Shown piece after piece: positions 7,014 through 63,440 of a stretch of 64,000 bases of DNA. Source of the DNA: Candidatus Poribacteria bacterium (GTDB taxonomy: Bacteria; Poribacteria; WGA-4E; PCPOR2b); NCBI GenBank assembly GCA_965116925.1, contig OZ220744.1:672001-736000 (forward strand), written 5' to 3'. Made by a program: the position numbers and the translations under genes. How positions within the stretch are numbered: position 1 is the stretch's first letter; every line of letters starts with the position of its first letter. Below the pieces are notes generated by a model, which saw only the letters and a program-made list of their open reading frames with translations, did no database searches and was not told the DNA's origin.

Positions 7014-7532
7014 TTATTTTGATAAGAATTGATAGGGATCTATTCCCACAGATTGATAATCGACGATTCTGATTCCTGGTGGCGTTTCTCCATTATTGAG
7101 TTGATCCATGATCACACTACTATCATTCCCACCCCCTGTCAGGACATTGCTAGCATACCGATGTATGGTGCCATCCGGTTCTTGGTACTGTTCCCATTCG
7201 ATATAGGCGACATCTGGATAGAGCGGATAGAACGTTCCATTGTTAATAACCCCGCCGGTAAAATCGTGGTCCCCTTCACTCCATAACTTTACCATAACCA
7301 TACTTAATAGTTCCTGTTCTTCAAGCAGATCCTGTGGTATCTGGGCCCGTTCTGCTTCAGAGCGATGCCAAGGGACGTTATATGGATAATCATCGGGAAC
7401 TTGGGGATATGCGAAACCAGTAATAGACCTGTTCGCTTCCAACCCTAATATCGCACACCCCCATATCATGGACAAACTGGTAGTTACTATGCAGACGGTA
7501 AGAACGCCATGGAGATATTTCATATTTTTCAC
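7014..7532 (-). CDS. Lipoprotein, paralogue A of a tandem family
   Basis: IWGC lipobox; shares the YPxVPDxYP..KLW..GDHDF.G..YP.VAY..W..PDGT domain with the next two genes. Confidence 0.8.
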   Translation of the reverse strand: MKNMKYLHGVLTVCIVTTSLSMIWGCAILGLEANRSITGFAYPQVPDDYPYNVPWHRSEAERAQIPQDLLEEQELLSMVMVKLWSEGDHDFTGGVINNGTFYPLYPDVAYIEWEQYQEPDGTIHRYASNVLTGGGNDSSVIMDQLNNGETPPGIRIVDYQSVGIDPYQFLSK

Positions 7533-7537
7533 CTTTC

Positions 7538-8062
7538 TTATTTTGACAGGAACTCATTAATATCTATACCCACATCTTCAACATCAACAATTATTATCCC
7601 CTCCGGGCTTTCCCCACTGTTGAGTTGGTCAATAATCACATCACTCCGAAGCGAACCAGAGACAATTACTCTGCTAGCATACCGATAGATTGTGCCGTCC
7701 GGCTTTTCATGCGCGTTCCAGTAGACATAGGCAACACCGGGATATTGAGGAAAGAATATCCCATTCCCAAGATGTGCACCAACAAAATCATGATCGCCAT
7801 TCTTCCATAGTTTAATCTGCGCCCGATCCAACAATACCATATTTTCAAAAATATCTTGAGGTATTTGCAATTTTTCTTCTTCAGGCAGTAGCCAAGCTAC
7901 TGGGAATGGATAGTCATCAGGCACTTCGGGATACTCAATAGGGTTGCTATCAATACCCAATTCAATATCGTCCCCCACTACCGCACAGCCCCATATCATG
8001 AACAAACCGATGGTTACTATGCAGACGGTAAGAACGCCATGGAGATATTTCATATTTTTCAC
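7538..8062 (-). CDS. Lipoprotein, paralogue B
   Basis: Leader nearly identical to paralogue A; same C-terminal domain. Confidence 0.8.
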   Translation of the reverse strand: MKNMKYLHGVLTVCIVTIGLFMIWGCAVVGDDIELGIDSNPIEYPEVPDDYPFPVAWLLPEEEKLQIPQDIFENMVLLDRAQIKLWKNGDHDFVGAHLGNGIFFPQYPGVAYVYWNAHEKPDGTIYRYASRVIVSGSLRSDVIIDQLNSGESPEGIIIVDVEDVGIDINEFLSK

Positions 8063-8070
8063 CCTTTCAT

Positions 8071-8772
8071 CTAATTGATATCGACGATTCTGATTCCTGG
8101 TGGTGTTTCTCCATTATTGAGTTGGTCCATGATCGCACTACTATCATTCCCACCCCCTGTCAGGACACCGCTAACATACCAATATGATGTGCCATCCGGT
8201 TCTTGGTACTGTTCCCATTCGACATAGGCGACATCTGGATAGAGCGGATAGAACGTTCCATTGTTAATAACTCCGCCGGTAAAATCATGGTCGCCTTTAT
8301 TCCATAGATTAATCATAGCGATACTTAAGCGTTCCTGTTCTTCAAGCTGATCTTGTGGTATCTGCGCCCGTTCTGCCTTAGAGCGCAGCCAAATTGGGGT
8401 AAATGGATAGCCATCCGGCACCGGCGGATACTTGCTGGTTTTCTCCTCTGCCTCCACAAGCAGTTCGGGGATCGTAGCATCTGTTGACAAAGAATCGAAG
8501 TCCTCCGAATCCCATTCATCCTCATCCCATTCATCGTCTGTCACGACGATTTCGCTAGAAGTCTCTGGATTACTCTCCGACGATCTGTTAGGCATTTTAG
8601 AAACGGCTGGTTTTCGTCGAAATACGATATCAGACTCCTCAATCAGCTCAGGTTCAGGATGTTGGTGTAACTGATGGAATGATACAATACTGTAGGTCAA
8701 CGCGATTAAGAAAATCATCAAACTAACAAGCAAGAAACATTTTGTCCAAGCCATAGCGGTCTTCCTTTTCAA
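8071..8772 (-). CDS. Membrane-anchored protein, paralogue C
   Basis: N-terminal TM helix, acidic linker, same C-terminal domain; start codon uncertain. Confidence 0.75.
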   Translation of the reverse strand: MKRKTAMAWTKCFLLVSLMIFLIALTYSIVSFHQLHQHPEPELIEESDIVFRRKPAVSKMPNRSSESNPETSSEIVVTDDEWDEDEWDSEDFDSLSTDATIPELLVEAEEKTSKYPPVPDGYPFTPIWLRSKAERAQIPQDQLEEQERLSIAMINLWNKGDHDFTGGVINNGTFYPLYPDVAYVEWEQYQEPDGTSYWYVSGVLTGGGNDSSAIMDQLNNGETPPGIRIVDIN

Positions 8773-14531: not shown

Positions 14532-14712
14532 CGCTCCAGAGGAGCGATATGTTTATAGAACGGCGATATGCCCAAACCCCGCGCTCCAGATGAAGATTAA
14601 TTTATTAATTGGGTAATTTCCGAGCGATGTCCGGTGCGGTTTGCAACCGCACCTACCGGGTCTGGGGAAATATAGAATTACCCGTTTAATTTCTTAAAAC
14701 CCATGAGGAGCG
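14532..14712. repeat. Doublet of palindrome family D (CGCTCC..GGAGCG); the second hairpin is split by an insertion
   Basis: Intact doublet at about 23207-23271; further copies at 25951, 26105, 26259; half copy at 63398. Confidence 0.75.
14590..14704. mobile_element. Family H palindromic element (115 bp) with a central GTAG-REP
   Basis: Ends ATGAAGATTAA...TTAAAACCCAT; sits in the centre of a family D hairpin. Confidence 0.75.
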
Positions 14713-14813
14713 CAATGTGCATAGCAGAACTCAAGATAGCCTGATCTGAATACGAAAACGATTCCTAAGCGGATTAAACAACCCTAAATCGATTAACCAC
14801 AAGAGGAGACACC

Positions 14814-15917: not shown

Positions 15918-15945
15918 ATGAACCAATGAATCAATCAACTCAATA

Positions 15946-16032
15946 TATAATAGATTTTAGAATTAATGGGACACGCCAAACCGCACCTACCGGGGGGGCG
16001 CAAGTGTTTCTTTATTTTTTGAATTCACTATA
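15946..16032. mobile_element. Family C MITE-like element (half of its REP deleted)
   Basis: TATA(G/A)TAGATTTTAGAATTAA...GAATTCACTATA; other copies at 45239, 56173, 56761, and reversed ending at 26621. Confidence 0.75.
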
Positions 16033-16041
16033 AATGAATCA

Positions 16042-25949: not shown

Positions 25950-26382
25950 TCGCTCCTCTGGAGCGAAGATATACGTCGGGTCGTTCGGATTTTTGCGTAT
26001 TTGGTGTGCTGAAGGTATGACAGTTCGGTGGCTGCTTTGTTTGCCTATTTGTGTTTTCTGCGTCATCTGTTGAAATTGGCTATATCGGCATTCTATAGAC
26101 ATATCGCTCCTCTGGAGCGAAGATATACGTCGGGTCGTTCGGATTTTTGCGTATTTGGTGTGCTGAAGGTATGACAGTTCGGTGGCTGCTTTGTTTGCCT
26201 ATTTGTGTTTTCTGCGTCATCTGTTGAAATTGGCTATATCGGCATTCTATAGACATATCGCTCCTCTGGAGCGAAGATATACGTCGGGTCGTTCGGATTT
26301 TTGCGTATTTGGTGTGCTGAAGGTACGACAGTTCGGTGGCTGCTTTGTTTGCCTATCTGTGTTTTCTGCGTCATCTGTTGAA
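25950..26382. repeat. Tandem repeat, 154-bp unit, about 2.8 copies
   Basis: The CGCTCCTCTGGAGCG hairpin recurs at 25951, 26105 and 26259 with near-identical intervening DNA. Confidence 0.92.
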
Positions 26383-26456
26383 TTTGTAATTCAGACAATA
26401 ATTATGCACACCCCTCAAATAAATAGCCACTTTCGCCCCCCGGTAGGTTCGGTTTT

Positions 26457-26573
26457 ATGAAGATTAAAAAAACAGTTCGGTAATTGGCTAGCGACACCGG
26501 CGCGGTTTGAAACCGCGCCTACCGTGTGTTTCGAGGAAAATAGGGATTACCGATTTAAATACTTAAACTTCAT
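26457..26573. mobile_element. Family H element (117 bp) nested in the REP of a reversed family C element
   Basis: ATGAAGATTAA...TTAAACTTCAT; close match to 56809-56925. Confidence 0.8.
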
Positions 26574-29211: not shown

Positions 29212-29685
29212 ATGAACACCGCTCCCAAACATCGAAGCCACAACCTCCGCAAAGGCAGAGCTTCCATACAAGGCACATATTACCACATCATCATCTGTAC
29301 ACACCAGCGACAGAAAATGCTAATGGACCCCACAATTGCATCAATTATCTTCAAAACATTCGATTGGCTCGAAACAGAGAACCGCCAAGAATGGGTATGT
29401 ATCTTGGTGATGCCGGATCATGTACACACGATTATTAAACTTGAACAAGGGCAGACCCTAGGACAAGTTTTGCATTCGATGAAACGCTTTACCGCCCGTG
29501 AGATTAACAAACATCTATCCCGGACGGGCTCCGTCTGGCAGCAAGGTTATAGCGATTGGGGCATTCGGGACGAGACGGTCTTAAACAAAACAATCCGCTA
29601 TTGTTATGTGAACCCTGTGAGAGCGGGTATAGTAGGGTCAGCTCGAGATTATCCGTATTGGCGGTGCAAGTTCCAGATGGAATAA
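29212..29685 (+). CDS. REP-associated tyrosine transposase (RAYT, Y1 HUH)
   Basis: YHIIICT, MPDHVH (HUH), VWQQGY, YCYVNPVRAG; flanked by inverted GTAG-REPs. Confidence 0.88.
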   Translation: MNTAPKHRSHNLRKGRASIQGTYYHIIICTHQRQKMLMDPTIASIIFKTFDWLETENRQEWVCILVMPDHVHTIIKLEQGQTLGQVLHSMKRFTAREINKHLSRTGSVWQQGYSDWGIRDETVLNKTIRYCYVNPVRAGIVGSARDYPYWRCKFQME

Positions 29686-30085
29686 TCGCTGTAGTATCGG
29701 TTGAAACGGCGCAGTTGAAAACAGCGCCTACCAGACAGGAGAACGGTACGGGCGGTTACAAACCGCACGGTGCAAGTTCCAGATGGAATAATCGCTGTAG
29801 TATCGGTTGAAACGGCGCAGTTGAAAACAGCGCCTACCAGACAGGAGAACGGTATGGGCGGTTACAAACCGCACGGTGCAAATTCCAGATGGAATAGTCG
29901 CCGTAATGTCAGTTGAACCGGCGCACTTGGAAACAGCGTCTACCAGACAGGAGAACGGTACGGGCGGTTACAAACCGCACGGTGCAAATTCCAGATGGAA
30001 TAATCGCTGTAGTATCGGTTGAAACGGCGCAGTTGAAAACAGCGCCTACCAGACGGGAGAACGGTACGGACGGTTACAAACCGCA
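29662..30085. repeat. Tandem repeat, 106-bp unit x4, containing the RAYT 3' end and two REPs
   Basis: Units start at 29662, 29768, 29874 and 29980. Confidence 0.93.
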
Positions 30086-30177
30086 CTAGGCATCGCTCGG
30101 AAATTACCGAATTAATAAATTAAACTTCATACAAAAACTCGGTTAATCGTTGAGACAATCTTCGTATCGGAGGACAC

Positions 30178-31644
30178 ATGCAACCCAATATTCTTATCTT
30201 TATGACCGATCAAGAACAAGCCGATGTGGTGCATCCAGACCATCCATGTATCACACCAAATGCTACGAGGTTAGCGCAGGAGGGGGTTCTTTTTAACCGT
30301 TCATTCTGTCCAACGGCACATTGCTGCCCCTCACGCGCAACATTTATGACAGGCGTATATCCCAGTCGGCACGGCATCTACAACAATGTCAGCAATCCGA
30401 CCGCCATCCACCACGAACTCTACGAAGGTGTCGGGATGTTCAGTGAGACACTCCGATCTTCGGGCTACAATTTGGCGTATGCCGGGAAATGGCATGTCAC
30501 CGACGCCGAGAACCCATCCGACCGCGGTTGGGAGGATCTGCACCTGACGGGGGGCAAAGGCAGCTACATGCACCGTTCAGTGGCGCAATGGCAAGAACAA
30601 GCCAAACAACCCGAATCGACAGAACGCCAGCGTGGGCAAATTCTCCGTCCCGGTTGGGGACACTACCAGTTGTATCAATCCTACCCGACCGACACACCGA
30701 AAGGCTACGAAGATCACCGAGATTATCGCGTTGTCCAATCTGGGATAGAGGCGTTGGGGCGACTGTCCCAAGCCGATGCGCCGTGGTGCCTATACATCGG
30801 ACCGAGCGGGCCCCACGACCCATTCATCGTGCCGGAGCGTTTCGCCCAAATGTATGACCCCAAAGAAATTCCGCTGCCCCCAAACTACCACGACACATTG
30901 GAAGACAAACCCCGCGCCTATCAGCGAGCGCGTCAGCAGTATTGGGATCAACTTTCGGAGGACGAAGTGCGCGAGTCCCTCCAGCACTATTGGGGATACT
31001 GCACAATGGAGGACGCGATGTTCGGTGAGGTGCTTGAGACACTGGAGGAGACAGGGCAGGCGGATAACACCCTTGTGCTACGAATGAGCGACCACGGCGA
31101 TTACTGCGGTGCACACGGCTTGTACCTCAAAGGGGTGCCGGCGTTCCGTGAGGCTTATAACATCGCCACAATTGCCCGTTGGCCCCAAGGGATCGCCAAT
31201 CCCAACCGCGAAGTCGATGACTTTGTCAGCCTCGCCGATTTCGCACCCACCTTCATCGAATTAGGGGGCGAATCCGTACCAGATGACCTGACAGGGAGGA
31301 GCCTCGTGCCATTCCTGAAAGACGAAACCCCCTCCGATTGGACGGACGCATTCTACACGCAATTCAACGGCGTTGAGCTGTATTACAGCCAGCGCGTTGT
31401 CACTACCAAAGAGTTCAAATACGTCTACAACGGCTTCGACTTCGACGAGGTATACGATCTGCGGAACGACCCGCACGAAATGGTGAACCTCAGCGACCAC
31501 CCCGATTATCAGGAGGTGAAGCGCGATTTGGTGCGTCGGATGTGGCGGTTCGCAGGACGCGAGGACGACATCATCTTCAACCCGTATGCAACGGTGGCAT
31601 TTGCGCCGTGGGGCCCCGCCGATGCCCTGCGCGATGAAGCGTAA
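30178..31644 (+). CDS. Sulfatase
   Basis: PNILIFMTDQ, CCPSRA, GKWH, PHDP, SDHG. Confidence 0.92.
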   Translation: MQPNILIFMTDQEQADVVHPDHPCITPNATRLAQEGVLFNRSFCPTAHCCPSRATFMTGVYPSRHGIYNNVSNPTAIHHELYEGVGMFSETLRSSGYNLAYAGKWHVTDAENPSDRGWEDLHLTGGKGSYMHRSVAQWQEQAKQPESTERQRGQILRPGWGHYQLYQSYPTDTPKGYEDHRDYRVVQSGIEALGRLSQADAPWCLYIGPSGPHDPFIVPERFAQMYDPKEIPLPPNYHDTLEDKPRAYQRARQQYWDQLSEDEVRESLQHYWGYCTMEDAMFGEVLETLEETGQADNTLVLRMSDHGDYCGAHGLYLKGVPAFREAYNIATIARWPQGIANPNREVDDFVSLADFAPTFIELGGESVPDDLTGRSLVPFLKDETPSDWTDAFYTQFNGVELYYSQRVVTTKEFKYVYNGFDFDEVYDLRNDPHEMVNLSDHPDYQEVKRDLVRRMWRFAGREDDIIFNPYATVAFAPWGPADALRDEA

Positions 31645-45046: not shown

Positions 45047-45326
45047 TAGGGGCATTTAATTCTCCCCTATTATTGTCTGAATTATGGATAGACGCGGATT
45101 AACCGATTAGAAAGATAAAAGATGCTATCGACAGTTGGCGTAAGAACGCGCAATGAATTGCGCTACTACAAACGGTGGGGAGACCAGATACCTCGCCTAC
45201 GGGTTTGGGTCAGCCCGAACGGTCAAAAAATGGAAAACTATAGTAGATTTTAGAATTAATGGGACACGCCAAACCGGGGGGGCGCAAGTGTTTCTTTATT
45301 TTTTGAATTCACTATAAATAGCCCTA
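45047..45326. mobile_element. Family I MITE-like composite element
   Basis: Ends TAGGGGCATTTA / TAAATAGCCCTA; 9-bp direct repeat CTAAAATTG; contains REPs and a family C copy (45239-45316). Confidence 0.7.
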
Positions 45327-55961: not shown

Positions 55962-56285
55962 TAGGGGCATTTAATTCTCCGTATATTATTGTCTGAATCG
56001 CGGATTAACACGGATTAACGGATTACACGGATTAAAGACGACAGCCATACCGACCTTAACAATGTACAATGAATGCGCGACGCCCAACGGCGGGGAGACC
56101 AGATGCCCCGCCTACCGGGTGTGGATAGAATGTGCGACTACGAACAACGGGACATGACCTAAAATCGAAAACTATAGTAGATTTTAGAATTAATGGGACA
56201 CGCCAAACCGGTGCGGTTACAAACCGCACCTACCGGGGGGGTGCCAGTGTTTCTTTATTTTTTGAATTCACTATAAATGACCCTA
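55962..56285. mobile_element. Family I composite element, second copy
   Basis: Same ends as 45047-45326; flanks TTGTGATGAT / TTGTGATGAC; contains an intact family C copy (56173-56275). Confidence 0.65.
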
Positions 56286-56760: not shown

Positions 56761-56981
56761 TATAGTAGATTTTAGAATTAATGGGACACGCCAAACCGGT
56801 GCGGTTACATGAAAATTAAAAAAACAGTTCGGTAATTTGCTAACGACGCCGGCGCGGTTGAAAACCGCGCCTACCGTGTGTTTCGAGGAAAATCGGGATT
56901 ACCGATTTAAATACTTAAATCTCATCAAACCGCACCTACCGGGGGAGCGCAAGTGTTTCTTTATCTTTTGAATTTACTATA
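56761..56981. mobile_element. Family C element with a nested family H element (56809-56925)
   Basis: Removing 56809-56925 and one C restores a near-copy of 56173-56275. Confidence 0.85.
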
Positions 56982-63298: not shown

Positions 63299-63440
63299 TA
63301 GTACTCTGTCACATAAGTTTTGGAATTATTATATATGTGAGGGGTGTGCATGTGTAGCCATCTTAGTAGATTAACCGTATTGCTGTGCATACACATTGCG
63401 CTCCGCATGAAGATTAATTTATTAATTGGGTAATTTCCGA
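63299..63440. repeat. Truncated nested repeats: G left end, half of a D hairpin, H left arm
   Basis: TAGTACTCTGTCACATAAGTTTT; GCGCTCCGC|ATGAAGATTAATTTATTAATTGGGTAATTTCCGA. Confidence 0.7.

Follow-up and report, generated by a model that had tools for sequence, protein, structure and literature searches.

The 64,000-nt stretch of Candidatus Poribacteria DNA analysed here (the window, part of genome G000) contains an element termed H, the complete copies of which interrupt hairpins. One complete copy of the 115-nt type occupies 14590..14704 on the forward strand. It begins with ATG at the start of its left 28-bp terminal inverted repeat (14590..14617), carries a GTAG-type repetitive extragenic palindrome (REP) with a 3-nt loop (14631..14660, forward strand) and closes with the right 28-bp terminal inverted repeat (14677..14704, reverse strand). 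The interrupted hairpin belongs to a family designated D; its left half with the first copy of the central G lies at 14581..14589 and its right half with the second copy at 14705..14713, both on the forward strand, and the junction reads GCGCTCCAG, H, GAGGAGCGC with the central G doubled. An adjoining family-D hairpin at 14532..14546 is empty. Two copies of the 117-nt type, likewise on the forward strand, reside in REPs. At 56809..56925 the junction reads GCGGTTAC, H, CAAACCGC with the central C doubled, and the REP concerned is the centre of a host MITE (a miniature inverted-repeat transposable element; 56761..56981) of a second, TA-type IS630 family, the ends of which resemble those of L103-L105. 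At 26457..26573 the REP has the opposite orientation and the junction is TT before and CC after the element, i.e. one additional base is present and the T and C at the junction do not match. Two remnants are one-ended: 34 nt behind a family-D half-arm (63407..63440, forward strand) and about 69 nt beside half of a palindrome designated A, where a REP array ends (30062..30130, reverse strand).

An earlier note, made from the window's sequence, had described these five sites and proposed that H inserts at the dyad axis of unrelated hairpins with duplication of about 1 bp. The three complete sites are as it described them, and the two remnants are indeed present, although with a half-arm only their central position is not provable. 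The same note had called H a long imperfect palindrome with a REP at its apex. The REP does lie near the middle, and together with the imperfect terminal repeats (19/28 paired) it is the source of the symmetry of H; the fold itself is only modest (minimum free energy as DNA -18.1 kcal/mol, z -2.84, with 2 of 200 shuffled sequences equally good).

Empty orthologous sites, which the note had suggested looking for, exist in related genomes of Candidatus Poribacteria. In G047 and G015 the hairpin filled at 14590 is empty and possesses a single central G (loci L190 and L198), and in G047 the neighbouring hairpin, empty in our window, is filled with H. For this comparison the loci of 15 of 19 relatives spanned the interval, most of them without these hairpins. 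A contig from sequencing run X1 similarly skips 14589-14705 and leaves one base in between; the runs containing the stretch include sponge metagenomes, and run X21 yielded zero raw reads on it. The gene next to 26457 has an intact upstream REP with a 3-nt loop and no H in G047 (L256). At the orthologous host MITE of 56809, neither REP nor H was found in 17 relatives.

Insertion positions and target hairpins across the genome

A profile built from the 28-nt terminus was run over all 6.47 Mb of the genome. It separated hits by a clear score gap and returned 234 element ends that resolve into 105 paired insertions and 24 orphans. Most paired insertions (92/105) measure 115-117 bp. In 97 of the 105 the insertion point coincides exactly with the axis of a palindrome of odd length, with at least five of six complementary pairs around the junction (six of six in 84), compared with 1036 of 200000 random positions (0.5%). 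A 1-bp duplication is present in 80/105, far above the shuffled mean of 28.4 and the maximum of 47 in 10000 shuffles, and all four bases occur as the duplicated base; a 2-bp duplication with shifted ends was rejected as an alternative because it fits only 5/105. Inspection by eye of the eight insertions that do not fit revealed three that are centred and lack the extra base, two whose arms a TA-type IS630 element or the corresponding MITE has broken, one with a damaged end and two that are nested or mis-paired; none is a plain off-centre insertion. Hence, both the central position and the single-base duplication proposed by the earlier note hold genome-wide, and the copies are not mostly off-centre.

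The targets comprise 16 distinct perfect 6-bp arms, and 44 of the 97 centred sites lie outside the REP family. For this reason we rejected the identification of H as a REP-specific insertion sequence (IS) of the IS1397, IS621 or ISPsy8 type. Low-copy palindromes, with arms present in 1-5 genomic copies, are used as well. The usual target has a stem of 6-9 bp, a 3-nt loop and a pyrimidine 5' of the loop. Among genome palindromes with stems of at least 6 bp, 72 of 2284 with a 3-nt loop and 6 of 1716 with a 1-nt loop are used, while none of those with 0-, 4-, 6- or 8-nt loops is (1079, 1594, 1511 and 1426, respectively). Three palindromes with 2-nt loops are used and represent the cases without duplication, and 5- and 9-nt loops are used once each. 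Likewise, palindrome A occurs in 143 copies with a 6-nt spacer, none of them used, and only its odd-spaced variants serve as targets. The base 5' of the 3-nt loop has a marked influence (T 50/380, C 18/364, A 2/201, G 0/298), and usage climbs with stem length from 5/7184 at 3 bp to 34/142 at 9 bp. Targeting is thus not blind to sequence, as the sequence of the tip matters. Of 70 clean insertions, which are not independent copies, 50 have the left end of H on the loop strand that is rich in purines.

Because the REP within H is itself a target, H and the full-length IS occur nested in H elsewhere in the genome. Nine paired insertions are nested, including both full-length elements, and one nest is three deep (G000 C1:4122104-4123578, L001), consisting of a hairpin, a 115-type H, a 117-type H and a full-length element. 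Longer derivatives of 127-147 bp with H ends and other interiors lie at G000 C1:929987, 949181 and 3411918. Perfectly symmetric flanks, in which the left is the reverse complement of the right, were observed at L057, L058, L060, L061 and L020 and at G000 C1:978792, 1421130, 4103641 and 4187298; these possibly arose by template switching between inverted repeats. Cumulative GC skew of the genome yielded no usable origin and terminus for an analysis of replichore bias.

The autonomous element and its relatives

H has its ends in common with a 1241-bp element, of which the genome possesses two copies with 98.6% identity (G000 C1:4122211-4123451 and 1430426-1431666), both situated inside the REP of an H copy. 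Its 28-bp terminal inverted repeats (24/28 paired) surround a single transposase gene encoding a 384-aa protein with helix-turn-helix (HTH) and DDE_3 domains. The ends of the compared H copies share 18-27 of 28 bases with those of this element (27/28 and 19/28 for the copy at 14590). Since H thus shares the ends of an autonomous element, and is short, non-coding, multicopy and flanked by a target duplication, we regard it as the MITE of the 1241-bp element. Mobilization in the manner of a REPIN by a REP-associated tyrosine transposase (RAYT) was rejected, as the ends of H are terminal repeats of a DDE element and its REP is internal rather than terminal.

The transposase scores 161.1 bits against the IS630 profile NF033545 of NCBIfam (cut-off 100), and its structure model (predicted local distance difference test score 92) finds its best fold matches in Mos1. 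Canonical members of the IS630/Tc1-mariner superfamily, such as ISY100, insert at TA, duplicate the TA and have a DD34-35E spacing (PMC2170065), although that spacing has been called loose (PMC11544213). Cut-and-paste movement through 3'-OH strand transfer, in which no hairpin intermediate arises, is a further feature of the superfamily. Like these, the H family possesses terminal inverted repeats, a single HTH-DDE transposase, short MITEs, among which RUP and Correia have been named for the superfamily (PMC2817692), and the corresponding profile and fold matches. Unlike these, it targets the hairpin tip, doubles one variable base instead of TA and has the second Asp separated from the Glu by 59 or 60 residues. 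This spacing is 60 in the parent's transposase (DD60E), and among the 117 of 121 close homologues in which the motif was found, 113 are DD60E and four DD59E; a term search of the accessible text of a recent IS630 survey returned neither designation (PMC11544213). Judged by its sequence, the H family descends from IS630 and is a derived variant rather than a canonical member, failing the TA test. A PDB sequence search with the transposase returned no relevant entry, and its insert could therefore not be placed against target DNA. A plasmid search with tblastn gave nothing at 1e-20, and viral contigs gave only six weak matches (23-28%), which were not used.

Relatives of the transposase are present in 35 of 151 genomes of the phylum. 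We examined 90 loci, of which 72 are DD59/60E-type with both ends (21 genomes), six belong to a DD35E relative, and the remaining 12 yielded no paired ends. In these 21 other genomes, 62 of the 72 full-length elements are centred in hairpins and 55 show a one-base duplication, kin and copies among them not being independent, and their target arms include ones unseen in G000. Ten near-identical full-length copies in one genome (L005-L014) occupy several unrelated hairpin families and are all centred with a 1-bp duplication. In G019 the targets have stems of 5 perfect bp. The DD35E relative, about 35% identical and with similar ends, shows the canonical pattern: its 13 full-length copies in four genomes all have CTA on the left and TAG on the right, and its targets form no long stems. 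In a tree calculated by a quick method without the insert, the Poribacteria clade has a support of 99 and insert-bearing and insert-free proteins are intermixed; the DD35E element is therefore a relative and not a shown sister.

Most of the clade carries DNR after the second Asp and the others DNW, which 6 of 117 keep; elements with DNW (G026, G130) still target hairpins. In Sleeping Beauty, target choice is influenced by the residues three and four positions beyond the corresponding Asp (PMC8934666); the DNW-to-DNR change, which lies next to these positions, offers no more than a lead to target choice. We also considered 80 distant metagenomic relatives (L109-L188, DD57-69E), 44 of them with both ends and flanks, on short contigs that may be chimeric. 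Positions -2 and +2 are complementary in every one of the 44 (as T and A in 43), and 14 have stems with at least five of six pairs (shuffled mean 1.5, maximum 6). Their flanks take the form T-x before and y-A after the element, and the end-adjacent base (T 47, G 39, A 29, C 1; n=116) agrees neither with duplication of 1 bp nor with that of TA. These insert-bearing relatives occupy an intermediate place.

Mechanism of target choice and its alternatives

We consider it probable that the derived IS630 transposase with its DD60E motif attacks the tips of extruded hairpins with a 1-nt stagger. The transposase of the 1241-bp element would move the non-autonomous H and would catch its target as a pair of hairpins, i.e. 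a cruciform, either pre-formed or induced by the transpososome. From the DDE chemistry known for the family from ISY100 (PMC2170065), each strand would receive one of the element's two 3' ends on the 5' side of its central loop base, and repair of the 1-nt stagger would double this base. Capture of paired hairpins would mean that arm complementarity and tip geometry select the target and that the sequence of the arms largely does not. Such targeting would confine the element to intergenic repeats, its own REP included. A bolder version, which we put forward tentatively and towards which we remain somewhat sceptical, is that the transposase alone recognizes any pyrimidine-closed DNA triloop and that a stand-alone hairpin-tip integrase with a 1-nt stagger evolved in this Poribacteria IS630 clade through the DNW-to-DNR change and a 26-residue insert. 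If this were true, the insertion sites would reveal the short palindromes that undergo extrusion in living cells, and the element could be steered by a hairpin of the user's design.

The same sites might be read without any extrusion if a transposase dimer recognized a degenerate symmetric motif (about YY-NNN-RR) in B-DNA, with palindromic repeats being the best intergenic matches, as in the palindromic target-site model of PMC2577343. The pyrimidine preference beside the loop with its exclusion of G and the orientation bias relative to the purine-rich loop strand agree with this, and an odd axis is expected from any 1-nt stagger. However, the arms covary, every site being self-complementary whatever its sequence, and use grows with stem length. 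Moreover, a symmetric weight matrix set to retain 90% of the targets is passed by 34401 sites in intergenic DNA, palindromes making up 3.9% of them and the other ~96% being unused, and of 73 intergenic sites joining two observed, non-complementary arms none is used, against ~8 predicted from the palindromic rate. We therefore regard duplex readout as unlikely. It is similarly improbable that a host factor, such as a REP-binding protein, a RAYT or a structure-specific nuclease, marks the tips and recruits the transposase. Most targets do come from repeat families, with selectivity at the family level, and the genome has five matches to Y1_Tnp, one of them beside REPs (29212-29685), but low-copy palindromes without REP features are used too, the behaviour tracks the transposase clade over 21 genomes with different repeats, and CTAG is the target of the DD35E relative from the same genus.

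Copy numbers raise a further concern, namely that few real insertions were multiplied later, carried along by the TA-type MITE or through gene conversion. Indeed, 44 of 49 outermost REP targets are inside the second, TA-ended MITE, the commonest orientation-plus-junction type occurs 12 times, and junction mismatches are concentrated in REPs (18/53 vs 2/44 elsewhere). Many REP insertions may thus have been co-amplified inside this MITE, so that independent events number fewer than 97. Yet the 46 simple REP insertions have 22 orientation-plus-junction types, the 44 centred sites outside REPs remain, of the neighbouring family-D hairpins G000 has one filled and G047 the other, and full-length elements of other genomes obey the same rule. 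Later multiplication inflates the counts and cannot create the pattern; as sole cause it is largely refuted, and we give it very little credence. Random insertion with persistence only in intergenic repeats would agree with the finding that, of the 99 outermost targets, 97 fall outside long open reading frames (ORFs), but the offset profile refutes it and its probability is practically negligible, since selection cannot set a position to one base and the symmetry is present at only 8051 of 1194058 intergenic positions.

Several observations weigh against attack on hairpin tips as the explanation. Four abundant triloop families (143, 106, 51 and 50 copies) are unused, and shape alone is therefore insufficient. 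The weight matrix at a strict median threshold passes 197 sites, 194 of them palindromic, a result that arises because REPs dominate. The two H types differ in their targets, REPs accounting for 1/22 of the 115-type and 45/64 of the 117-type. Stems of 6-9 bp, or of 5 perfect bp as in G019, are short for spontaneous cruciform extrusion. The distant insert-bearing relatives duplicate one base in only 13/44, which also weakens the DD60E insert as a sole cause. Finally, junction bases are mismatched at 20 of the 97 centred sites; the concentration of these mismatches in REPs is consistent with recombination among similar composites, a reading likewise offered for ISRm22 (PMC1525189). Taken with the tip rules and the possible co-amplification of REPs as qualifications, the data nevertheless support the structure-based targeting suggested in the earlier note. 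The note had not recognized H as the MITE of an IS630-type element, and it is this kinship that renders the target and the 1-bp duplication unusual.

Comparable behaviour has been described for other elements. IS1272 of Staphylococcus (IS1182 family) uses inverted-repeat targets without a common sequence, for which a cruciform model was proposed, and a hypothetical pathway c, in which the loop is attacked and duplicated, comes close to the H pattern (PMC5678879). H shares the unrelated inverted-repeat targets; IS1272, however, deletes and replaces the target stem-loop without duplication, whereas H keeps both arms and doubles the central base only. The REP-targeting elements ISPsy8, ISRm22, IS1397, ISKpn1, IS621 and ISPpu9/10 have one REP consensus each, produce 3-, 6-, 2- or 0-bp repeats and belong to the IS3, IS110, IS4, IS256 and IS5 families (PMC1525189). 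ISPsy8 and ISRm22 insert at the REP symmetry axis like H, but none of these elements is of the IS630 family, in contrast to the IS630-derived H family with its many arms. RAG inserts at cruciform and hairpin tips in vitro with a strong dependence on tip sequence (PMC1618415). As a DDE enzyme inserting into hairpin tips, RAG1/2 resembles the H transposase and differs in being a eukaryotic in vitro case with 4-nt tips rather than a natural genomic spread at single-base precision. A search of the open literature, outside of which lay subscription papers, ISfinder and supplements, found no IS630 element with hairpin-tip targets. For the superfamily of Sleeping Beauty and Mos1, insertion at TA and duplication of that TA are the hallmark, and here a natural clade has gone over to hairpin tips and, probably, a 1-nt stagger. 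As the phylum also has a TA-type relative to serve as control, it becomes testable which residues set target geometry, as does cruciform formation by short bacterial palindromes in vivo. The element also illustrates a safe-haven strategy, avoiding genes by aiming at intergenic repeats and carrying its own target.

Other repeats in the window

Members of the second MITE family, which have TA ends and a REP in the centre, lie in the window at 15934-16037, 45227-45321, 56161-56280 and 56761-56981; the family is related to other IS630 elements that the genome contains (L099-L105). REP-bearing MITEs are a feature of two IS630 lineages, either of which inserts into the surroundings of the other. The Y1_Tnp ORF at 29212-29685 is RAYT-like and has a GTAG REP alongside. 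It is followed by a 106-bp tandem REP array (29662-30191) that ends in the truncated H at 30130. A 154-bp tandem repeat with family-D hairpins spans 25950-26411, and three related 300-bp segments lie in neighbouring ORFs at 7059-8379.
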